This document shows positions 2,597 through 19,100 of a DNA stretch of 20,687 bases, piece by piece. The position numbers and the translations under genes were made by a program. This DNA is from an uncultured bacterium (GTDB lineage Bacteria > Hydrothermota > UBA3073 > NMUJ01): positions 1 through 20,687 of the forward strand of contig CBFDTI010000018.1 in the NCBI GenBank assembly GCA_965612795.1. The letters are read 5' to 3'. Every line of letters begins with the position of its first letter. Within the stretch, counting starts at the first letter, position 1. The notes under the pieces are model-generated. The model did not search any database. It saw only the letters and a program-made list of their open reading frames with translations, and was not told where the DNA came from.

Positions 2597-2623
2597 AAGT
2601 TAGGATTTATGAGGTTTTGTCAA
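2597..2623 (-). promoter_or_regulatory. Putative promoter of the LysM pair, TTGACA-N15-TAACTT
   Basis: Minus strand reads TTGACA aaacctcataaatcc TAACTT aatata aaatAGGAGGttaac ATG. Confidence 0.6.
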
Positions 2624-2644
2624 TCACATTCGAATCGACCACGG

Positions 2645-2671
2645 TTGACACAAATTTTATAAAGATATTTT
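2645..2671 (+). promoter_or_regulatory. Putative rplL-rpoB promoter, TTGACA-N15-TATTTT
   Basis: Reads TTGACA caaattttataaaga TATTTT tatata gggaaTAAGGAGGTagtag ATG, with a strong SD at 2683-2691. Confidence 0.65.
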
Positions 2672-2696
2672 TATATAGGGAATAAGGAGGTAGTAG

Positions 2697-3089
2697 ATGG
2701 CGAAGGTGGACGAACTGGTAGCTGCTATAAAGGAACTGAAAGTGAAAGAACTTGCCGACCTAATTAAGGCATTAGAAGAGGAATTTGGTGTAAAAGCTGC
2801 CCCTGTAGCAGTAGGTGTACCAGCAGCCGCTGGTACAGGAGCACCAGCTGCTGCACCTGCAGCCGAGGAGCAGACCGAATTCGATATCATACTGAAAGAG
2901 CTCAAACCCGACGCCAACCGCGTAGCCGTTATAAAGGAGGTACGTGCTATATTGGGATTGGGGTTGAAGGAAGCCAAGGACTTCGTGGATAGCATACCGA
3001 AACCTGTTAAGGAAAAAGTTACAAAGGAAGAGGCCGAATCCCTAAAACAGCGGTTAGAAGCAGTTGGTGCAGTTTGTGAAATTAAATAG
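2697..3089 (+). CDS. rplL: 50S ribosomal protein L7/L12
   Basis: N-terminal [15 protein letters not shown], Ala/Pro hinge, and C-terminal domain [10 protein letters not shown]...[21 protein letters not shown]...LEAVGA. Confidence 0.98.
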
Positions 3090-3116
3090 CAGTTATAGTT
3101 CCCGTATGATACAGGG

Positions 3117-6100
3117 ATGAAAGAAAAAGTTTTAAACTTTGTTAAAACTACATACGCACCACCGTTGGGAGATCTCACTGCATTGCAGTGGGAATCGTTC
3201 AATGACTTCTATCAGTTTGATGTACCACCTGATAAACGCGAGAAGAAAGGGTTGCAAGCACTTTTCGAGGAGTTCTTCCCGGTTGAAGATATACACAAAC
3301 GCTACAAATTGGAATTCGTGTGGTATGACTTTGGCACCCCCCGGTATACCCCTGAAGAGGCACGTGCTAAAAGTGTCACATATGGTATACCACTGAAAGC
3401 ATATTTTCGGTTGATAGTACGTGGTGAGGAAGGTCTACCACCCGACGTTATCGAACAGATAGTATACATAGGTGAAGTACCTATGCTCACACCTCAGGGG
3501 AGCTTCATAATCAATGGAGTTGAACGCGTGGTTATCAGCCAGCTACGTCGTATGCCAGGCGTGTACTTCGGCGAGGAGATACATCCCACCGGTAAACGCT
3601 TAATATCGGCTGAGATCATACCATACAGAGGCCCTTGGATAGAGATAGTAAGTGATGTCAACGATATGCTCTATATAAAGCTGGACCGTCAACATAAGAT
3701 ATTCATTACAACACTGCTGAGGGCATTGGGCTACGAAGATAACAGCACGATATTGAAGCTATTCTTAGACGTTAAAGAAGTCGATATAGACAAAGCTGAA
3801 GGTGAAGCACTCGCTGATGACATAAAGAAAGATGCACATACATACTTAGCACGTGCTGGCGATATATTGGACGAGGATCTAATCCGCAGCCTGAAAGAGT
3901 TTGGTGTCACCAAAGTACGTATACTTGTGGGTGAGAATATCTACTATCTTCTGAATACCATTCATCGCGATAGGGAGGGTACCCAGAAACAGGCCGTGGA
4001 AAAGATATACTTCATACTACGTGGTGTACCGGCACCGGATGCCGAAACAGCACGTCGCTTCCTTATGGATGCATACTTCTCGGAGAAGTATTTCTATCTG
4101 GGGCCACTTGGACGAAAGCGGTTAAATGAACGGCTTGGGCTCAATCTCACAACCCACACACTTACGCCACAGGATATCATCGGAACGGTACGTTATCTAT
4201 TACGTACACCACACGAATATCGTAAAATAGATGATGCCGACCATCTGGGTAACCGTCAAGTACGTCGTATAGGGGATCTGCTCGTCGAACAGTACAGGTT
4301 GGGTTTTGCTCGCCTCGTATGGGGTGTACAGGAGAAGATGGCCATGCACGACGTAGCACACCTCACCCCACAGGGGTTGCTAAACGTGCGTACGCTTATT
4401 AAAACAATTATGGCATTCTACACCACGTTCCCGCTCTGTCAGTTTATGGATGGTACCAACCCGCTCTCCATTGTAACACATAAACGTAGATTGTCGAAAC
4501 TTGGTCCGGGTGGGTTAACTCGCGAAACTGCCGGCATAGAAGCGCGTGATGTACATTATTCACATTACGGACGTATATGTCCGATTGAGACACCAGAAGG
4601 TCAAAACGTGGGTGTAATTAATACCTTAGCTCTATATGCACGTATAACCGAGAATGGTGTCATCACCACACCCTATTGGAGGGTAGAAAAAGGTGTAGTC
4701 ACAAACGAGTTAGTATATCTATCAGCTACTGAAGAAGAGGAGAAACTCATTGCCCAAGCATTGACACCGATTGACGAACACCGTAAACTGATCGGCCCAA
4801 GAATACTTGCCAGACGCGGTTCCGAATACTTATGGGCACACCCTGAAGATATCGAATACATGGAGGTGTCACCCAAACAGATGGTAGGGTTATCGGCCTC
4901 CCTTATTCCATTCCTTGAGCATGACGATGCTACACGTGCATTGATGGGATCAAACATGCAACGTCAGGCTGTACCATTGCTTTACCCCGAGGATCCCATC
5001 ATCGCCACCGGTATGGAGGAGAAAGTCGTACGTGATTCTGGTGTTGCAGTTATCGCCCAATCTGACGGTGTAGTCGTACGTGTAGACAGCAATGTCATAG
5101 TGATCAAACCAAACGGCAAAAAGGAGCTCGAATATTACTGGTTGAATAAGTTTGATCGATCCAATCAAAACACCTGCTACAACCAACGTCCAATCGTCAA
5201 GCCTGGTGACAAAGTTAAGAAGGGTGACATAATCGCAGACGGTGGTGCCACAAAGAATGGTAAGTTAGCGTTAGGTAAAGACGTACTTGTAGCTTTTATG
5301 TCGTGGCGTGGTTACAACTTTGAGGACGCTATCGTAATAAGTGAGCGATTGTTGAAGGATGATGTGTTCACATCGTTCCATATTGAAGAGCTTGAGCTTG
5401 AGGTACGTGAGACACGGCTTGGCCCCGAAGAAGTAACCCGCGACGTACCGAATGTACCTGAAGAGCCTCTACGTCACTTGGACGAAGCTGGCCTTGTACG
5501 TGTAGGTGCGTACGTGAAGCCCGGTGATATACTTGTGGGTAAAATCACACCACGAGGTGAAGCTGAACTCTCACCCGAGGAACGGCTACTGCGTGCAGTA
5601 TTCGGTCAGAAAGCGGCTGATGTTAAGGATGCTTCACTTTATGTGCCAGCCGGGCTCGAAGGTGTGGTTATTGACGTGCAGATACTCTCAAGGAGACCCA
5701 AACCCGGTGAAACTGACCTCGTGTGGGAGAAACGAGTTGAGCGCCTCAAATCCGAGATAAAACGCAAATACAGGCAGATGCGCGAAGATGCACGCAAATA
5801 TCTGGATCTCTCCGAAGATGAATACAAAGCTTACGTAAAAGAGTTACGTGCACGCGAAAAGGAAGAGCTACGTAAAGTCATGGAGGGTGACGAATTACCG
5901 TATGGTATATTGAAGATAATAAAGGTATGGATAGGCCAACGTAGGAACCTCACGATAGGGGATAAACTTTCGGGTAGACACGGTAACAAAGGTACAATAG
6001 GTATAATATTGCCAGAGCATGACATGCCATTCTTGGAAGATGGTACACCGGTTGATGTGGTGTTGGATCCACTGGGTGTACCCTCACGTATGAACATAGG

Positions 6101-6668
6101 GCAGATACTCGAAACACACCTTGGATGGGCGGCTAAGAAGCTTAACATAAAGATAGTTACCCCTGTGTTCGAGGGCCCCAAGATTGAGGAGATAAGGAAG
6201 CTAATGAGGAAGGCCGGTTTACCAGAGAATGGTAAGGTCACATTACGTGACGGCTACACAGGTGAACCTTTCAAACAACCCGTGACGGTAGGTTACATGT
6301 ACATAATGAAGCTCGTACATATGGCAGAGGATAAAATACATGCAAGAAATATAGGGCCGTACTCGCTTATCACACAACAGCCGTTGGGTGGTAAGTCACG
6401 TGCTGGCGGACAGCGTTTTGGTGAAATGGAGGTATGGGCACTCGAAGCGTATGGTGCAGCATATGCATTACAGGAGATGTTAACAGTGAAGTCAGACGAT
6501 ATGATCGGTAGACGTAAAGTGTATGAAGCTATCATCAAAGGTGAAGAGTTACCAGAACCTGGCTTACCAGCATCGTTTAACGTACTTTTGCGCGAACTTA
6601 ACGGGCTATGTCTCGCTACATATCTCATAAGACGTAAAGAATCCGATAAGCGCAAAGAAATAGGTTAA
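3117..6668 (+). CDS. rpoB: DNA-directed RNA polymerase subunit beta
   Basis: Motifs FIINGVERV, QFMD..NPLS..THKRRLS.LGPGGL, CPIETPEG, GYNFEDA, GDKLSGRHGNKG, GVPSRMNIGQ and GGQRFGEMEVWALEAYGAA; full length (1183 aa). Confidence 0.99.
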   Translation: MKEKVLNFVKTTYAPPLGDLTALQWESFNDFYQFDVPPDKREKKGLQALFEEFFPVEDIHKRYKLEFVWYDFGTPRYTPEEARAKSVTYGIPLKAYFRLIVRGEEGLPPDVIEQIVYIGEVPMLTPQGSFIINGVERVVISQLRRMPGVYFGEEIHPTGKRLISAEIIPYRGPWIEIVSDVNDMLYIKLDRQHKIFITTLLRALGYEDNSTILKLFLDVKEVDIDKAEGEALADDIKKDAHTYLARAGDILDEDLIRSLKEFGVTKVRILVGENIYYLLNTIHRDREGTQKQAVEKIYFILRGVPAPDAETARRFLMDAYFSEKYFYLGPLGRKRLNERLGLNLTTHTLTPQDIIGTVRYLLRTPHEYRKIDDADHLGNRQVRRIGDLLVEQYRLGFARLVWGVQEKMAMHDVAHLTPQGLLNVRTLIKTIMAFYTTFPLCQFMDGTNPLSIVTHKRRLSKLGPGGLTRETAGIEARDVHYSHYGRICPIETPEGQNVGVINTLALYARITENGVITTPYWRVEKGVVTNELVYLSATEEEEKLIAQALTPIDEHRKLIGPRILARRGSEYLWAHPEDIEYMEVSPKQMVGLSASLIPFLEHDDATRALMGSNMQRQAVPLLYPEDPIIATGMEEKVVRDSGVAVIAQSDGVVVRVDSNVIVIKPNGKKELEYYWLNKFDRSNQNTCYNQRPIVKPGDKVKKGDIIADGGATKNGKLALGKDVLVAFMSWRGYNFEDAIVISERLLKDDVFTSFHIEELELEVRETRLGPEEVTRDVPNVPEEPLRHLDEAGLVRVGAYVKPGDILVGKITPRGEAELSPEERLLRAVFGQKAADVKDASLYVPAGLEGVVIDVQILSRRPKPGETDLVWEKRVERLKSEIKRKYRQMREDARKYLDLSEDEYKAYVKELRAREKEELRKVMEGDELPYGILKIIKVWIGQRRNLTIGDKLSGRHGNKGTIGIILPEHDMPFLEDGTPVDVVLDPLGVPSRMNIGQILETHLGWAAKKLNIKIVTPVFEGPKIEEIRKLMRKAGLPENGKVTLRDGYTGEPFKQPVTVGYMYIMKLVHMAEDKIHARNIGPYSLITQQPLGGKSRAGGQRFGEMEVWALEAYGAAYALQEMLTVKSDDMIGRRKVYEAIIKGEELPEPGLPASFNVLLRELNGLCLATYLIRRKESDKRKEIG

Positions 6669-6695
6669 ACCACCCCGACCATAGTGCATTTCTAT

Positions 6696-7385
6696 ATGCT
6701 GGCGTTCGTTTTGCTTCTGTTTGATCCACCTATTTGGTACTGTATGGAATGTTTAGATAACTTCGTATTTAATCCATCGATTTATGTACATAGTATACGT
6801 TTGGGTACAGGGCTATTGTATGGGTTGACCGAACTCCCTTATTATATGGTAGCGGTTAGACTGCCCTACAAATCAGTGGATATCGGGCTATCAGGGATGC
6901 AATTCGGTAGTAGCTTCTACCATGAAAACGAACTTCTCTTCAACTTACGGTGTGGTCAGCTTCACACATATGGAATAAATCTACGAGTACTGCATGTGGG
7001 AGGTAAAGGGAGCACCCCCATTTACAATTGGGCACTCGACTGTGGTGTAGGAGTTTATCACACTAAAATGCCAATTTTTGTGGTTATACGTAATTTTAAT
7101 CCCAACCTATTGCGAACACAATTGCTCAGCGGTATAGTATACAACTATCGTGGGTTGCGGTTGATAGTCCTTTTAGAATACGTCGAAACAAAAACACAAC
7201 ATGTTCATGGTTTACTGCAACTATCGCCACATTCTCTGTGCAGAATTACGTTGGTTTGTTCGACTATCAAATTCTGGGGTTGTAAACTCTCTTTTAATCA
7301 GCCTCCGCTCATTATCGAATTTTGTCCAATATCACATCCCACATTGGGATGGTCTATTTATTCAGTGCTCTCGGTACAGTTATAA
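6696..7385 (+). CDS. Hypothetical protein, probable small outer-membrane beta-barrel (PorV/PorQ-like appearance)
   Basis: The ORF track starts at GTG 6684; ATG 6696 gives a hydrophobic N-terminus (MLAFVLLLF). Alternating hydrophobic strands and the motifs FNPS, LYGLTEL, FGSSFYHENE, YGINLRVL and LDCGV resemble small FCB-group barrels. The family call is from pattern recall only. Confidence 0.55.
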   Translation: MLAFVLLLFDPPIWYCMECLDNFVFNPSIYVHSIRLGTGLLYGLTELPYYMVAVRLPYKSVDIGLSGMQFGSSFYHENELLFNLRCGQLHTYGINLRVLHVGGKGSTPIYNWALDCGVGVYHTKMPIFVVIRNFNPNLLRTQLLSGIVYNYRGLRLIVLLEYVETKTQHVHGLLQLSPHSLCRITLVCSTIKFWGCKLSFNQPPLIIEFCPISHPTLGWSIYSVLSVQL

Positions 7386-8973
7386 CGCCATGGGGTGTAT
7401 TAAGTACAAGTTTATTTCCTTTTACTCCGGTTATCTCAAATAATTCAATATCTGCCCCTGTAATCACATCGCCCGGATTAACAGTGAACATATCATCCCA
7501 TTGTCCATCATTGTCCTTATCCCACCAGCCTAGTCCATCACCTACGCTTAAGTTACCGTCACCATCAACATCATCCCATGCTTCTACATATATTTCTTTT
7601 GGTTCATCAATCTCCCACGTAACCGTATAGTTACCGGTCTGTGGATCAACTTGTGTAATGGCTGCGATTACTATATACTCGGTATGTGAGGAGTCCAGGA
7701 ACGCATAACATTGATTGCTTAGCGTATGACCTGGCCATGTCACTGTACCGGAGACCGTAACCCCCGTAACAGGACCTCCACCTATAGATGCAATAAATTT
7801 CGACAGAAAAGCGTGCCAGTTAGTAGCACGGAACCTAAGCCGTACGTAGTGGGTTGAGTCAAACAACTCGTGATTAAACGGGAAGTGGATGTTCACCCCA
7901 CCGCGGGTTAATCCAGCCACATTCGTCATCGTAAATGGTACCGCATCGTTGATAGCGTCAATGACAGCATCGGCATCTTGACGTATCAAAGGTTTCTGAC
8001 CGATTGTGGGTTGTTGTTTCACCCTTTTTGCATATTCACGTAGGTCGACGAATGCAGGGTCGTCATACTGTGTGTAATGGGTTTCGTTAAATGCATTCAA
8101 TACCTCCTGCCATTCAGCTGCTGTCTCGACCTCTGTCACAAGGTGGTTACCGAAATCGCCTATTTTCGCTGCAAGTGTATTCATTTTACTCAAATCTATA
8201 AGCGCAAAATGTACATCTTTGCCCTTACGTTCACCTGCGTTGTAGACTGCAGTTACTATCTTTTGACCGAGTTCACTTGCCGGCATTTCGGGGTTCGCAA
8301 CCAGAGCACCTAACCATTCTGCTGACCCCAGCACACTTTCCATCGGCATCATAAATTGTGATCCACACATATAATCAGCAACATCTTTTAGCTCGTACGC
8401 TACCTCCACCATAGCCATGAGACATGCGTGAAAGACTATGATATCAAAATGTATGTCAACATCCTCTAACACTTCACGTAGTTCCGGTATCGACATCAAA
8501 TCGCCGGCACCGTTCTGCTCATCCTGACATACACCACGCCAACCAGATCCATGATCGTCGATCACTAACATGTAGTGGTTAGCGGGATAGTTTTCCTTCA
8601 CGTAATTGATGAAATCCTTCAACGTCTGTGGATCCGACATATCCTTGGTACCAAGTGTCTGCAGTACTGGCGAGCTAAGCGAATCCGGTAGCTCATCGGA
8701 ATACTTTTCGATATAGTAATACTTGAGTAATCCACCTCTTTTGATAGACGAGACAGCCGCTATTATCTTCACTTTATCGGTGGAACCTACCTCCTCCATT
8801 TCCTGTATATCCTCTATGACGTATGAAGTGTTGTTTTGACTGATATCAAGATTGTTGTTACCATCTGCGTAGACCATAATCGTCCATTCAGGTTTAACCT
8901 CAGCAGGTGGTGCCTTTCTACACCCGTATAGAGCCATTAGCCCTATCACCACAAACAATACAATCCGTCTCAT
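7354..8973 (-). CDS. Clostripain-family (C11) cysteine peptidase, lipoprotein
   Basis: Start reassigned from 9033 to ATG 8973, which has SD AGGAGG and signal MRRIVLFVVIGLMALYG-C. Motifs WTIMVYADGNNNL, YPANHYMLVIDDHGSGW (catalytic His) and FHACLMAMVEVAYEL (catalytic Cys). The C-terminal domain carries DxDxDG-type Ca-binding loops (DVDGDG, DKDNDG). Confidence 0.92.
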   Translation of the reverse strand: MRRIVLFVVIGLMALYGCRKAPPAEVKPEWTIMVYADGNNNLDISQNNTSYVIEDIQEMEEVGSTDKVKIIAAVSSIKRGGLLKYYYIEKYSDELPDSLSSPVLQTLGTKDMSDPQTLKDFINYVKENYPANHYMLVIDDHGSGWRGVCQDEQNGAGDLMSIPELREVLEDVDIHFDIIVFHACLMAMVEVAYELKDVADYMCGSQFMMPMESVLGSAEWLGALVANPEMPASELGQKIVTAVYNAGERKGKDVHFALIDLSKMNTLAAKIGDFGNHLVTEVETAAEWQEVLNAFNETHYTQYDDPAFVDLREYAKRVKQQPTIGQKPLIRQDADAVIDAINDAVPFTMTNVAGLTRGGVNIHFPFNHELFDSTHYVRLRFRATNWHAFLSKFIASIGGGPVTGVTVSGTVTWPGHTLSNQCYAFLDSSHTEYIVIAAITQVDPQTGNYTVTWEIDEPKEIYVEAWDDVDGDGNLSVGDGLGWWDKDNDGQWDDMFTVNPGDVITGADIELFEITGVKGNKLVLNTPHGVITVPRALNK

Positions 8974-8997
8974 TTCTCCTCCTTCTAACTTTATAAA

Positions 8998-9024
8998 TAT
9001 ATAACTTGCGTAAGTTGGGGTCAA
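8998..9024 (-). promoter_or_regulatory. Putative C11 peptidase promoter, TTGACC-N15-TATATA (or N17-TATATT)
   Basis: Minus strand reads TTGACC ccaacttacgcaagt TATATA tttata aagttagaAGGAGGagaa ATG. Confidence 0.55.
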
Positions 9025-9037
9025 TAGTATCAACGTG

Positions 9038-9064
9038 TTGACCTACATGTATAGTGTGTATCAT
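9038..9064 (+). promoter_or_regulatory. Putative promoter TTGACC-N15-TATCAT, near-leaderless
   Basis: Reads TTGACC tacatgtatagtgtg TATCAT attata gt GTG(9073). No SD precedes the GTG. Confidence 0.6.
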
Positions 9065-9072
9065 ATTATAGT

Positions 9073-10809
9073 GTGTGGCTGTTGATCGTATTGCTTACGT
9101 TACCCGAATATGAATGGGAATCAGACAATAAGTTTACTATATCATCCTATAATTTAGAAGAGCTGTCACGTTTGAAGGATAATCCAATAGATTTAAATAC
9201 GGCCACATTCGCAGAAATAGTGCGGTTACCATGGATATCAGTTATACTGGCTGAGAAGATAATCACCCAACGTTCGCAACGCCCATTCCGTGATACATGC
9301 GATTTCATCCAACGTCTACACATAAGCAATACACTATGGGGGAAAATTGCGCCTTACGTTACGGTTGGACCAGGTCGAAAACGCCCAACATTCTCCACCA
9401 AGCTGAGATTAAGTCAACGCCTACGTACCATATGGGGATATCAGCGTGCTGGATGCTTAGGCTCGCCTTACGAAGCACGTACATTTTTACAAGTACGATA
9501 TCCTGAGCGGTTTGCGTTCCATCTGCTGATACAGAAGGATCTGTACGAGCCACACTACGATGATTTCGTTTCATGGGGTATCGATATGCGGTTACCGCGA
9601 GTTGACCGCCTATTCGTGGGTAATTATGCTCTGGAGTTTGGTGAGTCACTAATGTTTGGTCCCCCATACAGAAGGATAAAATTCTATGCACTAAAGGGTG
9701 CGTCTCGCCTTATAATACCATACAGGATGGACGGTAACGAGAATCGTACACTGCAGGGTGTTGCCATGAAGTACGAGTTGGCAAGCATATCGTGGATAGG
9801 GTTCGCCTCATACACTATGCGTGATGCGAGGATCTACCATGATACCGTCAACCGCATAATTTATGAAAACTTATATCATGATACATATTCTAACCTAAAC
9901 GCAAAGAATAGGGTGGACGAACTCCTATATGGGCTATACATAGGTACAGATTGGGTTAGCTTTATGTTAAGTACCCTCAATTACAGAGGTGACTATGGGT
10001 TTGCGATACCTACCAGTTGTAAGATGATGAGCTTAATGTGGAATCTCCCTATACGTGGAGAGGTAACTTTCTACGGTGAGATAGGGCGCACTATATGGGA
10101 TAGCTACGGTGATGCACAGGTAATGGGTATAAACTATGGCCGTGGTAGATGGAGGTTAACTTTACTCTGGCGTAACTATGAAGATGAGTTCTGGGCGCCA
10201 TTTGGTACCTCGTTACGTGAAACCCGCAGCAGTAGTGAGTGTGGCCTTATACTCGCATATGCGTATGTTGCACGAGGTTGTAAGTTCAATTTCTATATAG
10301 ATAGGTACTTAGTATCATACACCCAACTTTATGTTGATTGCAGGATGACGATATTGTATAATTTCTGGCGTAACTATACACTTTATGTATCATATCGTGA
10401 GAAAAAGGCTTCCAATAATTCGCAATATTACAGGTCGGAGCTACGTTGTGACACCCGCTACAGAGAAAATACGTTCGAACTACGGACACGCCTTATAAGG
10501 GTTTGGTCCTCATCCGGGATTGGGCGCTTATTTTACATAGAGGTGGGCAAGAAATTAGCTGGTTATTCGGTTTCCTTACGTTACACAGTGTTTGGGGCCA
10601 CTGAATCAAGGGTGGCCTATGTGTATCAGTTCGAAAATGTGGCCGGCATTATAAGGAACATACCACTATATGGTGATGGCGAACGCATACTATTGAAGTT
10701 GACTTTATCTGTACGTAGTAGCACCGTATATTTATTCTACGTGTTCCACGTAAGGGGTGACCAATTCCATAAACATGAACTTGGTATAAGATGGGACATA
10801 CGGCTATAA
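9073..10809 (+). CDS. Helix-hairpin-helix (ComEA-like) domain protein with probable C-terminal outer-membrane beta-barrel
   Basis: PIDLNTATFAEIVRLPWISVILAEKII..R..RPF matches the ComEA/HhH_3 pattern. The remainder is rich in aromatic residues and alternating strands (LFVGNYALEFGESL, VTFYGEIG, LLWRNY) and ends in the amphipathic strand ELGIRWDIRL. Confidence 0.75.
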   Translation: MWLLIVLLTLPEYEWESDNKFTISSYNLEELSRLKDNPIDLNTATFAEIVRLPWISVILAEKIITQRSQRPFRDTCDFIQRLHISNTLWGKIAPYVTVGPGRKRPTFSTKLRLSQRLRTIWGYQRAGCLGSPYEARTFLQVRYPERFAFHLLIQKDLYEPHYDDFVSWGIDMRLPRVDRLFVGNYALEFGESLMFGPPYRRIKFYALKGASRLIIPYRMDGNENRTLQGVAMKYELASISWIGFASYTMRDARIYHDTVNRIIYENLYHDTYSNLNAKNRVDELLYGLYIGTDWVSFMLSTLNYRGDYGFAIPTSCKMMSLMWNLPIRGEVTFYGEIGRTIWDSYGDAQVMGINYGRGRWRLTLLWRNYEDEFWAPFGTSLRETRSSSECGLILAYAYVARGCKFNFYIDRYLVSYTQLYVDCRMTILYNFWRNYTLYVSYREKKASNNSQYYRSELRCDTRYRENTFELRTRLIRVWSSSGIGRLFYIEVGKKLAGYSVSLRYTVFGATESRVAYVYQFENVAGIIRNIPLYGDGERILLKLTLSVRSSTVYLFYVFHVRGDQFHKHELGIRWDIRL

Positions 10810-11834
10810 TGAAGCACGCAGTTGATGCACTTCAAAGAGGTGAGGTCATAGCTTTCCCTACAGATACTGTTTATGGGTTGGGGGCTGATGCTTACAATGA
10901 TGAGGCGATCGACAAGATCTATCGTATCAAACGCAGAAGCAGAGACAAACCCCTAATACTTTTCATCAAAAATAAAGCTGAATTACCTCAATATGTGACT
11001 GAACTGACGGAGGCTACGTTATCATTAATGGAGAAGTACTGGCCAGGTCCACTTACCTTGATTTTTAAAGCAAAAACGTCCACCCCATGTCAAAGCGCTA
11101 ATCACACCGTCGGTATACGTATACCAGATCATCAACTTGTGCTTACATTGTTAGAGCGGCTGGATTTCCCCTTAGCTACCACAAGCGCTAATATAGAAGG
11201 TGAGCCGCCCCTTAGTGAGCCCGAGCAAATCAGATCCCAACTTGGTATAAGGGTGATCTTAGGTGACGAGAAGATAACAATGGGAGTACCTTCTACCATA
11301 CTTGATGTGACAACTGCACCTCCCACCTTGTTACGTACTGGTAAGCTCAAGCCCGGTATACTCTGGCAAGATCTTAAACATCTGAAAATATGTGATAAAC
11401 TGCATTTACTATTCGTCTGCACAGGTAACCGCACGAGAAGTGTCATCGCTGAGTGGCTTGCAAGGACCATATTTCCCGACCTTGTAGAAGTACGTTCAGC
11501 TGGTGTATTACCAGGAGGTGCGCCACCCGACCCTAAAGCTGTCATGGTCATGCGTGAGAAAGGTATCGATATATCTAGCCATCGTTCGTTATCTATCGAT
11601 GTTGACTTACTGAAGTGGGCAGACTTTATCTTTGTCATGGAGTACCGTCATGTGGAATTTATCGAGTATTTATATCCAGATGCATTACCATATGTTTTTT
11701 ACCTTGATACACTTTCGAAGGAGGTGGGTGAAATACCCGACCCTATTGGTTCACCGATAGAGAATTATCAACTTGTCAGAGATATCATCGAAATAAGGTT
11801 GATGGAACTTAGCCGATATTTACTCTTTGAGTAA
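10809..11834 (+). CDS. tsaC: Threonylcarbamoyl-AMP synthase (TsaC/Sua5/YrdC) fused to a low-molecular-weight phosphatase domain
   Basis: N-terminal domain: GEVIAFPTDTVYGL, IYRIKRR...KPL, YWPGPLTLI, VGIRIPDH, TTSAN, PSTILD. C-terminal domain: LFVCTGNRTRS, SAG, ADFIFVME..H, EIPDPIG. The start is probably ATG 10809 (TAATG overlap with the upstream stop); 10791 is the alternative. Confidence 0.9.
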   Translation: MKHAVDALQRGEVIAFPTDTVYGLGADAYNDEAIDKIYRIKRRSRDKPLILFIKNKAELPQYVTELTEATLSLMEKYWPGPLTLIFKAKTSTPCQSANHTVGIRIPDHQLVLTLLERLDFPLATTSANIEGEPPLSEPEQIRSQLGIRVILGDEKITMGVPSTILDVTTAPPTLLRTGKLKPGILWQDLKHLKICDKLHLLFVCTGNRTRSVIAEWLARTIFPDLVEVRSAGVLPGGAPPDPKAVMVMREKGIDISSHRSLSIDVDLLKWADFIFVMEYRHVEFIEYLYPDALPYVFYLDTLSKEVGEIPDPIGSPIENYQLVRDIIEIRLMELSRYLLFE

Positions 11835-13865
11835 CGCTTTTCTTGATAATAAAGGACGCCCTTCGTCGTCAAACCCTATCACTTTAACAGCTACCTCATC
11901 ACCTATTTTTACAACTTCTTCAACCCTTTTGACCCGCTTGTGATCGAGTTGCGATATGTGTATCATACCATCAACACCTGGCGCTATCTCCACTATTGCA
12001 CCAAATGGTAGTATACGTTTTACCCTACCGATGTAGACTCTACCCTCACATGGACCGTTTACAATAAGTGATACCATCTGATACGCTTTCTCGGTAGCTT
12101 CCTTATCTTTTGAGTGGAACACGATACGTGAATCCTTAACCTCAATTTCTGCACCCGATCGTTCCACGATCTCACGTATTATCGTACCACCTGGACCTAT
12201 GATTTGGCCGATTTTCTCCTTGGGTACTTCCATCACCTTTATCTTAGGTGCGTATGGTGATATTTCACTACGTGGGCCAGGTAATACCTTTTCCATCAAC
12301 CCAATAATGTAGTGGCGGACGGATTTGGCGCCCTCCAGCGCATCTTTCAGGATGTCTTTACTTATACCTGGTACTTTAATATCGAGCTGTATAGCTGTGA
12401 TACCATCACGTGTACCGGCAATCTTAAAGTCCATATCACCGGCATGATCTTCCTCGCCAAGTATATCCGTAAGTATAACATCACCGACTAATCCCATTGC
12501 GATACCGGCGACATGTGTTTTTGTAGGTACACCTGCATCCATCAACGATAACGAGCCTGCACATACTGTGGCCATGGATGATGAGCCGTTCGACGATAAT
12601 ATATCGGAGACCACCCTTATAGTATATGGAAAGGCTTCGCTCGCTGGTAGGATGGGTTCCAGTGCTTTCTCAGCTAACCGTCCATGTCCTATCTCACGCC
12701 TGCGAGGTGCCTTCAAAGGTGCAGCTTCACCCGTGCTGAATGGTGGAAAGTTATAGTGTAACATGAAAGTTTTCCAACTCTCGCCAGTGAGTTCCTCCAC
12801 ATGCTGTTCATCGGCAGCTGTACCGAGTGTGGTTACTGCGAGGCTCTGTGTCTCACCGCGTGTGAAGAGTGCCGACCCATGTACACGCGGAAGTACACCT
12901 ACCTCACACGATATAGGACGTACATCCGTGGGTTTCCTACCATCCAATCTACGTCTTTCTTTTAGTATCAATTCACGAATATATGTATTCTTTATCTCTT
13001 CAACGATTGTCGCTACATAGGGGGTATCGGGATACTCCTCTCGTATACTGAGCCAGATTTTCTCTAACAAGTTATGTCTGTCTTTTTTGCGAGTATGGTT
13101 GAGTGCATTGATGATCGCATCTTTATACTTACGTTCGATGTTAGCCTTTATAGTGGGATCAATCTCAACCCGAGTATATTCAAACGGCGTTATTTCTATG
13201 GAATTAAGCAATTCTTCCTGTAGTTCGATAGTCTTTATTATTTCGCTATGAGCAATTTCAAGTGCCTCGAACAGGGTGGATTCGTCCACCTCATATGCAC
13301 TGGCCTCTATCATTGTTATACCTTCTTTGGTACCTGCTACTACCATATCGAGTGTACTGTTTTCAAGTTCGGTAACGGTGGGGTTGACCACCAATTCACG
13401 CCCTATTTGACCGATCCTCACTGCACCTATGGGTCCATTAAACGGTAATCCAGCTGCAAGTAACGCAAACGATGCACCTATTATTGCTGGTACGTCGGGC
13501 TGATTCTCCTGATCTGCCGAAAACACTATTGCGGTTACCTGTACATTATGCAGAAAATCATTTGGAAACAATGGCCGTACTGGCCTATCTATCAGACGTG
13601 CTGTGACGATTTCAGTTTCGTGTGGCTTACCCTCACGCTTGTAATATCCACCGGGTATTCTACCTGCAGCACCTGCTTTCTCTTGGTAATCAACCGTAAG
13701 TGGTAAGAACGGTGTATCGGAGACTACAGATTGGCTTACACATACAGTGACGAGTACACTTGTATCACCATATTTGACAAGTGCAGCTCCGTCACTCTGA
13801 AATGCAATATCACCTGTAGAAATAGAAAATGTCCTACCCGCGATTTCGCATTGAACTTGAGGCAT
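11820..13865 (-). CDS. pnp: Polyribonucleotide nucleotidyltransferase (PNPase)
   Basis: Motifs FLPLTVDYQEK, ARLIDRPVRPLFP, HGSALFTRGETQ, RRREIGHG, SNGSSSMA and GDMDFK, plus KH (IIGPGG) and S1 (GMIHISQL) domains. ATG 13865 overlaps the rpsO TGA (TGATG); GTG 13868 is the alternative. Confidence 0.98.
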   Translation of the reverse strand: MPQVQCEIAGRTFSISTGDIAFQSDGAALVKYGDTSVLVTVCVSQSVVSDTPFLPLTVDYQEKAGAAGRIPGGYYKREGKPHETEIVTARLIDRPVRPLFPNDFLHNVQVTAIVFSADQENQPDVPAIIGASFALLAAGLPFNGPIGAVRIGQIGRELVVNPTVTELENSTLDMVVAGTKEGITMIEASAYEVDESTLFEALEIAHSEIIKTIELQEELLNSIEITPFEYTRVEIDPTIKANIERKYKDAIINALNHTRKKDRHNLLEKIWLSIREEYPDTPYVATIVEEIKNTYIRELILKERRRLDGRKPTDVRPISCEVGVLPRVHGSALFTRGETQSLAVTTLGTAADEQHVEELTGESWKTFMLHYNFPPFSTGEAAPLKAPRRREIGHGRLAEKALEPILPASEAFPYTIRVVSDILSSNGSSSMATVCAGSLSLMDAGVPTKTHVAGIAMGLVGDVILTDILGEEDHAGDMDFKIAGTRDGITAIQLDIKVPGISKDILKDALEGAKSVRHYIIGLMEKVLPGPRSEISPYAPKIKVMEVPKEKIGQIIGPGGTIIREIVERSGAEIEVKDSRIVFHSKDKEATEKAYQMVSLIVNGPCEGRVYIGRVKRILPFGAIVEIAPGVDGMIHISQLDHKRVKRVEEVVKIGDEVAVKVIGFDDEGRPLLSRKALLKE

Positions 13866-14122
13866 CACTTTCTGAGACCCAACTTTTGGATCACCTCCCT
13901 ATAGCGAACGGGATCGTTCTCCCTAAGATAGCGTAGAAGCTTTTTACGCTTTGATACTAATTTGATGAGCCCATACCGCGAATGTAGGTCTTTACGATGG
14001 CGTTTCATATGTTCGGTAAGATTGCGTATCCTTTCCGTTAATATACCTATTTGTACCTCAACCGATCCTGTATCGTTAGGATGTTGTTGTAACTCTTTTA
14101 TGATTTCGTGGTTCGGTTTCAT
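13865..14122 (-). CDS. rpsO: 30S ribosomal protein S15
   Basis: Motifs [37 protein letters not shown] and LGLRK. Start reassigned to ATG 14122 (85 aa), because the ORF-track extension to 14158 runs through the promoter-like sequence. Confidence 0.97.
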
Positions 14123-14128
14123 CCAATT

Positions 14129-14155
14129 AAAATAACCATAAATTAAAAAAGTCAA
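14129..14155 (-). promoter_or_regulatory. Putative leaderless rpsO-pnp promoter, TTGACT-N15-TATTTT-N6-ATG
   Basis: Minus strand reads TTGACT tttttaatttatggt TATTTT aattgg ATG, with no SD. Confidence 0.65.
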
Positions 14156-14201
14156 CAATTTTCGACTGGCTGGTCTGTGTTATCCTTTGCATATCGTAAG
14201 T

Positions 14202-15251
14202 TTATATTCTAAAAACTGAACGCTTTATCTTTATCGCACCATGTGGGCATACTTCGTAACAGCATGTACATAGTATGCACTTATGATGATCAATCATATA
14301 AGGGGGACCCGATATCGCATTAGCAGGACACGAATCGGCACATACCCCACATGTACGACATCTGTTTGTGATCACAGGTCTATAACTAAATAGTAATGAG
14401 TAGATGTAGCGTAAAACCGTGGGTAGTATGAGATTTACAACCCTTGTTTGTGGCATCCGTATCCTTAGGGTGGTAACCTCACTGATAAGCTCGTATGAGG
14501 GAAGGGAGGCAATTTTTATTTCTGGAAAAATTCTCTCTGAGATGCGTGCAAGTTTTGTTATAGCAAAATCCATAGCAAGTGCATCGTCAGCTATCCCCAG
14601 TATACCGAAAGCTTTGGGCTCACCAGCGGACGGGCCGTTACCTTCCATACCTAAGATACCATCGAGCACCGTAATATGTGATGGTATCAACTTGTACAGC
14701 CTTAAAAGCATCTTCGTAAAGGAGACAGGATCAGGATACATACTATGTAAGTGCGATTTATATAACCCAGGTACTAAGCCAAACAAATTCTTAACCGCCA
14801 GCGTCATACCTGTCAAACTGTGAGTCTTTAATTTAGGTAGGTTAACGATCATATCCACATCGTAACAGATTTTGGATATGTGTAAATCATCCACAATCTT
14901 GATAGAATAGCGGTTGAGGTCCAGCAATTCTGCACCTACTTTATTGGCAACCGCTCGCATGCCAGTTATAATCCATAAGCTTTCCATATCTTTTACTGCA
15001 CCACCGGGGCTGTCGCCGATTAATACCTTGCCACCATGATCAACCACCCATTCGGCGATACCTTCAACCACCATCGGATGTGTAGTTATTGCAGCTGAAG
15101 GTGGTTTCGCTGTTAGTAGGTTGGGTTTGAGCAACACCCTATCACCCCGCCTTATGATATCCGTGTACCCTAGTAGGTTGAAGCCGCGTTCGATGGTCGC
15201 CTTGAGTATGGATTTACGGTAGGTTTCACATTTGAGTAGCACTACCTTCAT
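14202..15251 (-). CDS. DUF362-domain protein with C-terminal 2x[4Fe-4S] ferredoxin domain
   Basis: Motifs VLLKPNLL, TTHP, IGDSPG, NLPKLKTH, AVKNLFG and DGILGMEGNGPSAG, then CRTCGVCADSCP and CILCTCCYEVCP. Confidence 0.9.
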   Translation of the reverse strand: MKVVLLKCETYRKSILKATIERGFNLLGYTDIIRRGDRVLLKPNLLTAKPPSAAITTHPMVVEGIAEWVVDHGGKVLIGDSPGGAVKDMESLWIITGMRAVANKVGAELLDLNRYSIKIVDDLHISKICYDVDMIVNLPKLKTHSLTGMTLAVKNLFGLVPGLYKSHLHSMYPDPVSFTKMLLRLYKLIPSHITVLDGILGMEGNGPSAGEPKAFGILGIADDALAMDFAITKLARISERIFPEIKIASLPSYELISEVTTLRIRMPQTRVVNLILPTVLRYIYSLLFSYRPVITNRCRTCGVCADSCPANAISGPPYMIDHHKCILCTCCYEVCPHGAIKIKRSVFRI

Positions 15252-16050
15252 GCTGTGCTAGTATAGCATTGACCATGGTTAGTGCCTCACGTGTGGGTTT
15301 AACATCATGTACACGGAAGTAAGTGGCACCGTTCAAAAACGCTATGAGGTTGCTGGCGATTGAGCCGATCACACGGTCACGTGGGTTGTCTATACCTAAG
15401 ATCTTACCAATAAAGCTTTTACGTGATACACCGATCATCACGGGTGTGCCAAGCCTACATAGTGAGGATAGATTACGCAATATTGTTAAGTTATCCTCCA
15501 CACGTTTGCCGAACCCTATCCCGGGGTCGATGATAATGTTTTCACGCTTTATACCGTAGGATTGGGCAAATTCAAGCCTTTCGTTAAAGTATGTGATAAG
15601 TTCATGCATCACATCTTCATAGTAAGGGTTAACTTGCATAGTTCTGGGTGTACCTTTCATATGCATTATTACAACCTTTGCATTATACTTGGCGATAACT
15701 TCAGGCATGTGTGGGTCGAACCTCAACCCTGATACATCGTTCACAATCTCTGCACCCAATCTCAGTGCAGCTTCAGCTACCTCACTTTTATATGTATCAA
15801 TAGAAATCCTTATCCCTCTATCTGCAAGCTGTTCGACTACGGGTAAGACGCGGCGTAGCTCGTCATCCACTGGTACAGGGGTGGCACCTGGGCGGGTGGA
15901 TTCACCTCCTACATCGATGATATCGGCACCTTCTGTGGCCATCCTCATCGCATGCGATACCGCCACGTTGGGGTCTAAGAATAGCCCACCATCGGAGAAC
16001 GAATCCGGGGTTACGTTCAATATTCCCACGAGGATGAACTTTTTACCCAT
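15226..16050 (-). CDS. folP: Dihydropteroate synthase
   Basis: Motifs GILNVTPDSFSDGG, IIDVGGESTRPGA, SIDTYK, INDVS-like VNDVSG, MHMKGTP, IDPGIGFGK, GVSRKSF and RVHDV. Start reassigned to ATG 16050. Confidence 0.96.
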   Translation of the reverse strand: MGKKFILVGILNVTPDSFSDGGLFLDPNVAVSHAMRMATEGADIIDVGGESTRPGATPVPVDDELRRVLPVVEQLADRGIRISIDTYKSEVAEAALRLGAEIVNDVSGLRFDPHMPEVIAKYNAKVVIMHMKGTPRTMQVNPYYEDVMHELITYFNERLEFAQSYGIKRENIIIDPGIGFGKRVEDNLTILRNLSSLCRLGTPVMIGVSRKSFIGKILGIDNPRDRVIGSIASNLIAFLNGATYFRVHDVKPTREALTMVNAILAQHEGSATQM

Positions 16051-16056
16051 AAGTTT

Positions 16057-16083
16057 AAAATATTGACAACCCATGCATGGCAA
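16057..16083 (-). promoter_or_regulatory. Putative leaderless folP promoter, TTGCCA-N15-TATTTT-N6-ATG
   Basis: Minus strand reads TTGCCA tgcatgggttgtcaa TATTTT aaactt ATG, with no SD and the same geometry as rpsO. Confidence 0.6.
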
Positions 16084-16139: not shown

Positions 16140-19100
16140 ATGTACCTGCTATTGTGTATGGTGTTGGAAGTGACCATCTCGTATAGAGGGGGTATATCGA
16201 AAAATAATATAACATTCTATCATACCAAAGGCTATGTGATACCGAGGTTAGCAGATGCGGTTTACGATAATCCCACAGGTTATCCCACCCTACCGAGTAT
16301 ACCGATGTTCTTCTACGTACCAGAGGGTGCAAAGGTTACCAACTGTGAATTTAAAGTAATACATCGCGAGATAATACCTTTGGATGCACCAATTTATCCG
16401 ACACAACCACCAGTTATTAAACCCATACCTGGGAAGGAGATACCTGTACCGGAATTTGTCCACCTCAAAGAAGAAGTTAAATCACTCGCTGTATATCCAG
16501 AAACCTACACCAAACTTGGGTATATCGGTAACCTCAGCGGCTATCACGTACAGGAGTTGATAACCTACCCCATACGTTATTTGCCAAGCAAAAATGCGCT
16601 CGAACTTGTAACCGAGTTTGAACTACAGCTCACGTATGAGGGTGGTAAGCATTCCAGGGGTTCAATACTGGGGTATGAACTTGCCAGGTGTATTGTTGCA
16701 AATCCCAACGATTTACCTGTACCTAAATCCAGCTCACCTGCATATCTGGTGATCACCTCGTCATCGATGATGGACGAGTTTGCACCACTTATCGAGTGGA
16801 AGCGCCAGAAGGGGCTACACGTTATCACTCAGAACATACAGTGGATATACAGCAACTACGGAGGTTTAGACTGTGCAGCTAAAATTCGTAACTATATTCG
16901 TGATATGTACGAGGATTCAAATGTCGTGTTTGTACTGTTGGGTGGTGATACCAACATCATACCCAAACGTATAGCGTTCGCCATGTGTTGTGAAGCCGGT
17001 TTCGAGCCTAACGAAGATAGTATCTGTGCAGACCTATACTACTCAGATCTCGATGGTACATGGGATGCAGATGGTGATGCTGTTTACGGTGAAGTAACCG
17101 ACAATGTTGACCTATATCCCGACGTGATAGTAGGTAGAGCTTCAGTGAATGATGGCGATGAAGCCGCTATATGGGTGGATAAGCTCTTAACTTATGAACG
17201 TAATCCACCTCAGGATTACGAGAATCGTGCACTGTTTTTGGGTGAGATATTGTGGTGGGATCCTTACACGGATGCCGGTATAGGTAAAGATATGATCGAA
17301 GAAGCAGCATTCCCACCCGCTGGATGGGAGATAACCAAGCTTTACCAATCACTCGGTAACGAAACCCCTGCTGCTGTTATAGAAGAAGTTAATGCCGGTA
17401 AGAATCTAATCAACCACGACGGTCACGCGTGGTGGTATGTGATGGGTGTAGGTACTGGATATATCTCTAACTACGAGATGGACAACCTCATCAATGCACC
17501 TCGTTATGGTATATGGTATTCTATAGGGTGTTGGCCGGCAGCTTTCGATTACGACTGTATTGCGGAACACTTCATACATAGTCCACAGGGTGGTGGTGTC
17601 GCTTTCATAGGTAACAACCGCTACGGGTGGGGTTCACCAGGTAACCCCGGCTATGGGTACTCTGATATATACGATCGTGAATTCTTTGTAGTATTGTTTA
17701 AAGAAGGTGGTTACAAGCATCTTGGGTTGGCGTTGGCTAAAGCCAAGATACACTTCATACCATACGCACGTGATGCAAACGTATGGCGATGGCACCAGTA
17801 CCAGGTCAACCTGTTAGGTGATCCCGAGATGCCGGTGTGGTTAGGTATACCTGACGATATGGAGGTGAGCTTGCCACATCAAATACCTACAGGTGACGTT
17901 ATGTTGCGGGTGATGGTATCAGCTGATGGTTATCCACTCGATAGCGTTAGGGTGGCGGTGGCTAAGCCCGATGAATCACTGTACGAACATATCTATACGG
18001 ATGTCAATGGTACAGCGATACTCAATCTACATGTAGAAACTGGAGGTAACCTCATCGTTACGGTGACCAAGCCTAACTACATGCCGGTTATTGATACCAT
18101 CCAAGTAGGTGATGGTTATATACCGCCACAGTTTTATGGTTACACCATCATCGATACATTAGGTAACAACGATGGTGAGCCCAATCCTGGCGATACTATC
18201 GTGTTGGTTACCAAACTTACGTGCGTAGAAGGCCCATACTCAGGTGTGTTATCAACTAACGATATATATATCACCATCATTGACAGTATCGACGAACGTG
18301 ACTCTTGTATACAGGATACTGCGGTGTTGAGGTTCACCTTGTACATTGACGACGAAAGTCCACCACATAGCGCAGGTTTGGGGTTGCGATTCACTTTCGA
18401 CGATTGTGTTTGTAACTATAACATGGGGTTGGAGATAAAATTGGCACAACCCAAGCTGATAGATTATGTGGTTCAGGATACTCCAATACAATCCACAGAT
18501 ACCGTACACGTGGGGTTTGCTATCACCAACGCCGGAAACGGATTGCTGAGCTCACCACGATGTTGGCTATCATCCACCGTACCCTACATTGATATACCTG
18601 CAGAGACATTGCAATTGATGTCGATACCGCCGGGTGATACAATATGGACCGACTTCTTCACCGTCTATGTGGTGGATGCACCTGAAATCTGTTTCCCTGA
18701 TGTGATAGCCAATCTACGCGATATCTATGGATACGGGTTCGCTGATACGTTACAGCTCGTAGTGGGTAGGCCTGGCTTCTTCGATGATGTCGAATCAGAA
18801 GTTGATTGGATGCATGGTGGTACAAACGATAATTGGCATCGATCCACAATACGTGCACATTCAGGTGATCACTCATGGTATATGGGGGTGGAAGATTCCG
18901 CCAGTTATTTAAATAATACCTGCGCGTGGTTGTTGAGCCCCACCATTGTGTTGCCACCAGATGCAGAGTTACATTTCTGGTATTGGATGGATATCACCAC
19001 ATATGGAAGTGATGGCCTATACGTGACCGTGGGGTATGACGGTGATTGGGATACACTCGATTATATTGGTAGTGGTGGGGCGCTCGATTCAATGCTAAAT

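Follow-up and report, generated by a model that had tools for sequence, protein, structure and literature searches.

Promoters with a 15-bp spacer in a small order of WOR-3 bacteria, and the short sigma factor that may read them

The stretch of DNA analyzed here (the window; 20,687 nucleotides of contig C18) belongs to the metagenome-assembled genome of an uncultured WOR-3 bacterium, G000 (1.42 Mb in 128 contigs, estimated to be 99.5% complete), and the feature under study is a recurrent two-block promoter element, in which a -35 hexamer close to TTGACA and a -10 hexamer beginning with TA are separated by 15 nt. By profile, the genes of the window encode two LysM proteins, the ribosomal protein L7/L12, the beta subunit of the RNA polymerase (rpoB), a clostripain-like peptidase, the ribosomal protein S15, PNPase, and DHPS, and the 578-amino-acid (aa) open reading frame (ORF) labeled 'HhH' has no match in NCBIfam. 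An initial reading of the letters alone (the original prediction) had listed six of these elements, and direct reading of the window recovered all six, with the proposed hexamers and a 15-nt gap in each (Table 1).

Table 1. Promoter elements of the window and the rpoB gene, with their positions in the 20,687-nucleotide stretch.
Feature	Position	Strand	Description
lysM-gene promoter	2597..2623	-	TTGACA (2623-2618), 15-nt spacer, TAACTT (2602-2597); Shine-Dalgarno sequence and ATG 22 nt downstream
rplL (L7/L12)-rpoB operon promoter	2645..2671	+	TTGACA-15-TATTTT; back-to-back with the lysM promoter
C11 (clostripain-like) peptidase gene promoter	8996..9024	-	TTGACC + 15 nt + TATATA (8998-9003) or 17 nt + TATATT (8996-9001); ambiguous
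Promoter of the 578-aa ORF ('HhH')	9038..9064	+	TTGACC-15-TATCAT; divergent from the C11 promoter
rpsO (S15)-pnp promoter	14122..14155	-	TTGACT-15-TATTTT (14134-14129), 6 nt, ATG at 14122; predicted leaderless mRNA
folP (DHPS) promoter	16050..16083	-	TTGCCA (one mismatch)-15-TATTTT (16062-16057), 6 nt, ATG at 16050; predicted leaderless mRNA
rpoB (beta subunit, 1183 aa)	3117..6668	+	Flap-tip helix SPEERLLRAVFGQKA; no indel relative to relatives with 16- or 17-bp spacers

The strict pattern TTGACN-N15-TANNNT is found seven times in the window, against an expectation of 1.09, and this number was reached in none of 100 dinucleotide shuffles. Four of the seven matches are the lysM, rplL, HhH, and rpsO sites, and the other three are intragenic; the same hexamers have no match in the window at spacer 16. 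The C11 site had been read with a 15-nt spacer, and the TATATA at that distance is present but lacks the T at -7, so the strict pattern fits this site only at 17 nt.

This geometry also predominates in the genome as a whole. On both strands of G000, TTGACN-Nx-TANNNT occurs 205 times at x = 15, 113 times at x = 16, 77 times at x = 17, and 46-97 times at other values of x, and when the -10 box is narrowed to TAT[AT]TT, the counts are 60, 28, and 8, with 1-7 at the other spacers. Close to gene starts, spacers 15, 16, and 17 have 146, 65, and 26 matches, and away from starts the numbers remain level, at 32-65. A search with the pattern TTGACN-15-TANNTT returned 136 sites vs 12 in the control, and the profile anchored on TTGACN (500 sites near starts) has, from offset 21 to offset 27, the letters T, A, w, t, T, T, t, and so a 15-nt gap. 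With TAnnTT as the anchor instead, TTG is found 118 times at N18 and 92 times at N19, where 26 are expected.

Expectation maximization (EM), initialized with the Escherichia coli consensus and with all spacers from 12 to 22 equally likely beforehand, returned the consensus gTTGACa / TAttTTaaa in both of two runs, and the shuffled control stayed flat. The dominant promoter of the genome is gTTGACa-N15/16-TAttTT, with shares of 0.51 for spacer 15, 0.38 for spacer 16, and 0.04 for spacer 17 in one run, and of 0.41, 0.34, and 0.06, respectively, in the other. The -35 frequencies (T.82, T.90, G.91, A.71, C.57, a.49) spell the TTGACA hexamer, and the -10 box has A at.99 and its last T at.75, followed by three positions with A at 0.48-0.52. 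The estimated share of the approximately 1,210 upstream regions that bear a site is either 0.52 or 0.25, depending on the EM implementation. A spacer mode of 16-18 had been named beforehand as the outcome that would contradict the original prediction, and the mode found is 15.

The canonical sigma70/sigmaA promoter of E. coli, Bacillus subtilis, and most phyla is TTGACA-N17-TATAAT, and a spacer of 17 bp is generally taken to be a virtually universal feature of promoters in bacteria. The promoters of G000 share with this form the -35 hexamer, the near-invariant A-11 and T-7, the probable distance from the -10 box to the start, and the -35-reading residues of region 4.2 of the sigma, whereas their spacer mode is 15 and then 16, with 17 nearly absent, and their -10 box is TAttTT. 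Passages of a 2025 survey of transcription start sites (TSSs) in 49 species give spacers of 16-18 bp, with 17 predominant (PMC12641261). The literature searched contained no report of a 15-bp housekeeping spacer mode, which is not proof that there is none.

The register of the -10 box is fixed by two independent landmarks. The ATG lies exactly 6 nt past the -10 box at two sites, rpsO and folP, as had been proposed, and the S15 and DHPS profiles back both start codons, with the S15 alignment beginning at residue 4 of the 85-aa rpsO product. Throughout the genome, the first in-frame start lies exactly 6 nt past the -10 box at 19 of 111 spacer-15 sites and at 6 of 47 spacer-16 sites; among the former, distances of 5 and 7 nt account for two and three sites. 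This 6-nt distance is the geometry of what appear to be leaderless mRNAs, with +1 at the A of the ATG. A two-block match is also present within 90 nt upstream of 20 of the 46 tRNA genes, with spacers of 15 in nine, 16 in six, 17 in one, and other lengths in four, and the -10 box ends mostly 7-11 nt ahead of the mature 5' end. Together, the distances to start codons and to tRNA 5' ends place TAnnTT at -12 to -7 and TTGACA at about -33 to -28, so that transcription would start about 7 nt past the -10 box, and the -35 box would lie roughly 2 bp nearer the start than in E. coli. Four metatranscriptome runs from a single study yielded only short contigs from a relative, at 95-99% identity, and none of these spans a promoter, so they carry no information on TSSs.

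In many of the tRNA genes (C1 tRNA-Thr, C2 tRNA-Asp, and C25 tRNA-Val, for example), the -10 box ends just 7-8 nt before the mature 5' end. The primary transcripts of these genes would thus have 5' leaders of approximately 0-2 nt, and RNase P would have little to trim.

The same evidence bears on the reading of the 15-bp spacer as an artefact of register or chance, according to which the true -10 box is a TATA-like box 20-21 nt past the -35 box, or TTGACA is the site of a regulator. A WWTATA does follow four of the six elements of the window, as had been observed, and the frequency of TATA starts rises weakly at offsets 21-23 after TTGACN. In the genome, however, WWTATA follows only three of 103 spacer-15 sites, so the box is not general, and the continuation seen in the window is a local coincidence. 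The EM, -35-anchored, and -10-anchored profiles concur on TA at +15/16, the leaderless starts and the tRNA 5' ends fit TAnnTT as -12 to -7, the sigma retains its -35-reading residues, and the motif precedes a quarter to a half of the genes. An artefact is scarcely credible in the face of this evidence, by which it is largely refuted.

The distribution of the trait was followed in the relatives of G000, with each pattern count paired with a count for the reversed pattern as a control. Spacer 15 is enriched in all four genomes of the order (observed/control: G000 205/51, G001 524/107, G041 138/33, and G042 189/40), and it exceeds 1.2 times the control in none of 51 other WOR-3 genomes, of which 18 are of the same class and 33 of other classes. 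In a sample of 41 WOR-3 genomes, the spacer mode is 16 in 20, 17 in 17, and 15 in two, with no clear peak in another two; spacers 14 and 18 were measured in G000 and four of the sampled relatives. The sharpest 15-bp mode is that of G001, from the sister family, in which EM assigns a share of 0.76 to spacer 15, with the consensus TTGACA-15-TAaAAT. In fetched DNA of other relatives, the mode is sharply 17 in G028, along with a canonical TGnTATAAT, and 16 in G039, and G008 has 16 and 17 at about the same level, the modes of G008 and G039 being taken from anchor counts, as EM did not converge to a clean motif in these genomes. The 15-bp mode is a derived and narrow trait, given that the excess is confined to a single small order in a phylum whose optimum otherwise varies between 16 and 17.

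The possibility that G001 has a distinct 17-bp class was considered and rejected, as the 11 matches are TATAATTT, that is, mis-registered 15-bp sites. In 400 kb of C1 of G001, both the spacer-15 and the spacer-16 promoters have a conserved A-ttt-TG, with the TG at spacer positions 12-13; as this motif keeps a fixed distance from the -35 box in both classes, its placement is unlike that of the TGn of a canonical extended -10. The promoters upstream of the short-sigma genes described below were uninformative, with only two weak matches in 22 genomes. The rplL orthologues of the 14 relatives scored have no two-block match within 140 nt upstream, which leaves no orthologous rplL promoter for comparison.

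The spacing is accompanied by an unusual set of sigma factors. Only two proteins of G000 match Sigma70_r2, and one of these is a fragment of an extracytoplasmic function (ECF) sigma; the sole non-ECF protein of the sigma-70 family is a short sigma of 275 aa, encoded on contig C15 (L001:1378-2205). Every other WOR-3 genome sampled has a long RpoD, with an open frame of 512-669 aa and 248-388 bits against TIGR02393, and most have, in addition, a short sigma of about 265-325 aa. The canonical long RpoD has been lost in the genus of G000, all three genomes of which have the short sigma only. The original prediction had implied an altered RpoD, and this does not hold, since the canonical RpoD is absent and the reader would be a paralogous short sigma.

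It might be argued that assembly or binning failed to recover a canonical RpoD that the genus does have, in which case the housekeeping sigma would be an ordinary one; these are, after all, fragmented metagenome-assembled genomes, and completeness is 66% and 87% in the other two of the genus. This is highly improbable, given the estimated completeness of G000, the absence of the gene from three genomes out of three, and the outcome of a tblastn search with 30 long WOR-3 RpoDs, which match only the short sigma gene of G000, at 30-39% identity and through their C-terminal halves, with no N-terminal match in that genome. The ancestral site of the gene points the same way. In G001, which has both a long RpoD and a short sigma, dnaG is succeeded by the long rpoD and then by genes of 134 and 213 aa. 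In G000, the contig with dnaG (C89) continues past this gene with an unrelated 215-aa ORF, and the homologues of the 134- and 213-aa genes lie in the interior of C13, behind a 351-aa ORF. Both flanks of the dnaG-rpoD site are thus found inside contigs without rpoD, which shows a real loss.

In the Pfam profiles, the 275-aa sigma comprises regions 1.2, 2, 3, and 4 only, with neither region 1.1 nor the non-conserved insert. It remains below the cut-offs for the RpoD C-terminal model (TIGR02393, 184/354 bits), RpoS (TIGR02394, 206/378.7), and RpoH (TIGR02392, 165.8/323.1), and the only NCBIfam sigma model it passes is the generic sigma-70 superfamily model, TIGR02937. It therefore differs from a group-1 RpoD both in the lack of region 1.1 and in its score. 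Its -35-reading helix is canonical (SRERVRQIK), and when it is aligned with the SigA of B. subtilis (7ckq_F), the sole gap is one of two residues, in the linker between regions 3.2 and 4.1.

The length of this linker was followed by counting the residues from WWIRQ to RERVRQ, which we take to be the motifs of regions 2.4 and 4.2, respectively. The count is 149 aa in the short sigmas of G000 and G042, and 148 aa in that of G001. A count of 151 aa is shared by 19 of 21 long RpoDs of WOR-3, by the RpoD and RpoS of E. coli, and by 44 of the 50 Bacteroidota sigmas that could be measured, from 56 loci fetched. In the short sigmas found elsewhere in WOR-3, the count is 148-149 in three genomes of the same class, 142 in family f4, and 150-152 in the other classes. 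In the long RpoD of G001, the same distance is 152 aa rather than 151, with two extra residues in the aligned region 3.2-4.1 linker. This protein has a long branch (1.05-1.17) and scores 288 bits against TIGR02393, with its canonical motifs of regions 2.4 and 4.2 intact, and the long RpoD is fast-evolving in the sister family.

In the phylogenetic tree, the long and short sigmas of WOR-3 are separated with a support of 100, and the sigma of G000 falls with the short sigmas of its class (support 86-94), on a long branch. When references from E. coli are included, the long forms of WOR-3 join RpoD (99) and then RpoS (94), and the short sigmas remain outside this clade, together with the sigmas of Bacteroidota plus Gemmatimonadota and of Latescibacterota plus Krumholzibacteriia. 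The WOR-3 short sigmas (98) and the Bacteroidota sigmas (99) form separate clades in an unresolved polytomy. The nearest relatives of the 275-aa sigma outside WOR-3 have 39-44% identity over residues 9-264 and are mostly from Bacteroidota, in a retrieval that was biased by word patterns, with some from Gemmatimonadota, Latescibacterota, and Spirochaetota. The tree thus places the short sigma of G000 as a member of a paralogous clade of short sigmas that is spread across WOR-3.

The short sigma gene itself (L001:31-2977, C15) lies between a gene for an HtrA/DegP-like serine protease and a gene with an M23-like motif, presumably of the type typical of M23 (NlpD-like) peptidases. This neighborhood recalls the nlpD-rpoS linkage of E. 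coli, with the order reversed.

The reading preferred here, which may be given a probability of about two in three, is that these are real housekeeping promoters of a small WOR-3 order, with a spacer of 15 bp (less often 16), and that they are read, in G000, by a holoenzyme of the short sigma, the canonical RpoD having been lost in the genus. By elimination, the 275-aa sigma would read the promoters of G000 together with the core polymerase, as it is the only non-ECF protein of the sigma-70 family that is left. The genes that use the 15- and 16-bp promoters include rplL, rpsO, and those of tRNAs, which are housekeeping genes. The original prediction that the housekeeping holoenzyme of this lineage reads a spacer about 2 bp shorter is supported by the mode of 15, the fixed register, and the relatives at 16 or 17, but its size must be reduced, as the shift is of 1-2 bp. 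Under the preferred reading, the holoenzyme of the order would seat sigma4 about 1-2 bp nearer to sigma2, and the 15-bp optimum would be an intrinsic property of the short-sigma holoenzyme. Passages of PMC10216364 describe a sigma4/flap-tip module whose rotation depends on the length of the spacer and whose position differs from sigma to sigma, and a module that is both mobile and sigma-dependent makes a spacer shift encoded by the sigma plausible. The most concrete candidate determinant is the sigma 3.2-4.1 linker, which is shorter by 2-3 residues and is the sole change in length that was found. As the shorter linker predates the 15-bp mode and fails to predict the spacing elsewhere, however, its role can be proposed only as a hypothesis.

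A number of points weigh against this interpretation. All of the evidence comes from the DNA sequence of metagenome-assembled genomes, and spacer 16 accounts for 0.38 of the sites of G000, so that the preference is for 15-16 rather than strictly for 15. The genome with the sharpest 15-bp mode, G001, still has its long RpoD intact, with the canonical motifs for reading DNA. The genomes of the same class whose short sigmas have the 148-149-aa spacing show no excess at spacer 15, and the Bacteroidota sigmas have the normal 151-aa spacing. In family f8, where no short sigma is present and the long RpoD has the 151-aa spacing, the mode is nevertheless sharply 16. Across the phylum, the spacing is explained by neither the type of sigma nor the length of the linker.

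The four genomes of f8 (G003, G024, G030, and G036), which have the long RpoD only, have the sharpest 16-bp modes (e.g., 369/67). A long RpoD with a linker of standard length can, on this pattern, read 16 bp.

In one alternative, the core polymerase or an accessory factor (beta', alpha, or an initiation factor, for example) has changed throughout the order, so that both sigmas of G001 read 15 bp and the loss of RpoD is incidental. The intact long RpoD of G001 beside its 0.76 share for spacer 15 is in keeping with such a change, as is the occurrence of long RpoDs of identical linker length with modes of either 16 or 17, which implies that something besides the length of the linker moves the optimum. 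The comparison of the core enzyme was made on beta (rpoB), and here the flap-tip helix has no indel relative to the 16- and 17-mode relatives, and no substitution common to G000 and G001. The long branch and the 288 bits of the long RpoD of G001 would fit a sigma that no longer fills its principal role. On balance, a change in the core is unlikely. Behind the beta flap, families f1, f2, f3, f5, and f6 (the short-insertion rpoB genomes being G000, G001, G008, G022, and G040) share an insertion that is about 50-70 residues shorter than in f4 and the other classes. The beta flap was rejected as the cause, since its tip has no indel and the shorter insertion is also found in families with a mode of 16 or 17. 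The altered sigma4/beta-flap geometry that had been proposed is retained only in part, with the linker as a candidate cause and no change in length in the flap tip.

A second alternative leaves the polymerase unchanged and invokes the topology of the DNA, which, in a thermophile with reverse gyrase, would be more relaxed or overwound, favoring shorter spacers. Both G000 (1277 bits) and G001 (1094 bits) have a full-length reverse gyrase, an enzyme that scores above the cut-off in six of the 41 sampled genomes, and published work links spacer length to sensitivity to supercoiling (PMC8695583). The other holders of reverse gyrase nevertheless peak at 17 (G020, G038, and G006, of f11) or 16 (G010), and G000 has a GyrA of 1058 bits, as has G001 in a divergent form (817 bits). 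A shift of 2 bp would also correspond to about 70 degrees of twist, which is probably beyond any plausible change in supercoiling. The repertoire of topoisomerases was rejected as the cause, as neither reverse gyrase nor GyrA separates the 15-bp order from its 16- and 17-mode relatives, and an explanation by topology is very unlikely. The divergent GyrA of G001 (cut-off 877) and its divergent long RpoD were observed at G001:C1:27269-29566 and G001:C7:58375-59085.

The closest known parallel to the short-sigma holoenzyme is found in the Bacteroidetes, in which sigma-ABfr (about 285 aa) reportedly recognizes promoters of the form TTTG or TTG ... TAnnTTTG, according to the original papers on Bacteroides and Flavobacterium. 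The spacing optimum of the Flavobacterium promoter is said to be 19, and Chlorobaculum is presumably a member of the same Fibrobacteres-Chlorobi-Bacteroidetes (FCB) superphylum as WOR-3. The Flavobacterium promoter is quoted, in excerpt, as TTG-N17-23-TANNTTTG. Passages of two sources describe the -33/-7 promoters of Bacteroidetes and Chlorobi as read by a short primary sigma (PMC7366714; bioRxiv 10.1101/172254), and in view of this precedent, the remark of the original prediction that no description of such a shorter spacer was known is too strong. In Chlorobaculum tepidum, part of the latter source gives an RpoD motif obtained by differential RNA sequencing, -33 TTG / -6 TA[ATC][ATC][AT]T (bioRxiv 10.1101/172254).

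Like the Bacteroidetes, G000 has a short primary sigma without region 1.1 in place of the canonical RpoD, as its only housekeeping sigma, and its -10 box coincides with the initial six positions (TAnnTT) of the -7 box. In contrast with the Bacteroidetes, G000 has a full TTGACA at -35, a -10 box trailed by aaa and not by TG, and Shine-Dalgarno sites that are used. Relative to the range given for these promoters, with TTG about 19-21 nt ahead of TA, only the minor class of G000, TTG-N19-TA (92), overlaps, and the main class, N18 (118), is shorter by one bp. A Flavobacteriales sample of 400 kb had an excess of TTG at N19, with four sites vs 1.7 expected, that is too weak to locate a -33 position. 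The promoters of C. tepidum resemble those of G000 in their T-rich -10 box without TTTG and in a -35-like TTG that is nearer to the start than in E. coli; the TSSs of C. tepidum are experimental, whereas those of G000 are deduced from the letters. The literature search on WOR-3 sigma factors and promoters found nothing, and the literature matches listed include no solved structure of a Bacteroidetes RNA polymerase with its sigma.

It is tempting to suppose that a short Bacteroidota-like sigma displaced RpoD in WOR-3, in a second and possibly independent takeover, and that its short tether sets the 15 bp. In this mechanism, the 3.2-4.1 tether, shorter by 2-3 residues, would draw the sigma4/flap-tip module toward sigma2, so that 15 bp would be measured and not 17. 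This extended scenario is doubtful. The Bacteroidota sigmas keep the 151-aa spacing, in contrast with the 149 aa of the sigma of G000, and in the tree the two belong to separate clades of one polytomy.

The 15-bp mode is the shortest housekeeping spacer seen so far, and it is paired with the loss of the canonical RpoD. A single phylum with 17-, 16-, and 15-bp lineages offers closely related polymerases and sigmas with different rulers, and the WOR-3 set provides material, in the form of swaps of the sigma, the linker, or the flap tip, to find what fixes the distance between sigma2 and sigma4. The bacterium of the window is, in this respect, a natural test case for how the RNA polymerase measures its promoters. 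If the linker is indeed responsible, the length of the spacer would be encoded, at least in part, in how many residues the linker has, and evolution could tune it. In practical terms, software for promoter prediction or annotation that expects a long RpoD and spacers of 17±1 bp will score such genomes wrongly, and synthetic promoters for these organisms would need a 15-bp spacer.

Other features of the window concern its gene content. The usual bacterial gene order is rplJL-rpoBC, but at 3117-7385, rpoB is not followed by rpoC, and a 233-aa ORF with no NCBIfam match is found there instead; rplL has no rplJ upstream. The regions at 1-1683 and 16140-19841 encode a protein with a type IX secretion system (T9SS) C-terminal sorting domain and a PorU-like sortase homologue, type IX secretion being typical of the FCB group.

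Divergent pairs of promoters, with their -35 boxes back to back and 7-46 bp between them, are also recurrent. Two of these pairs are in the window (2597-2671 and 8996-9064), and others are found elsewhere in G000, at C3:19533-19612, C6:32042-32121, C19:10666-10744, C31:1337-1396, and C41:3692-3764. This recurrence suggests a compact bidirectional promoter layout in a small genome.

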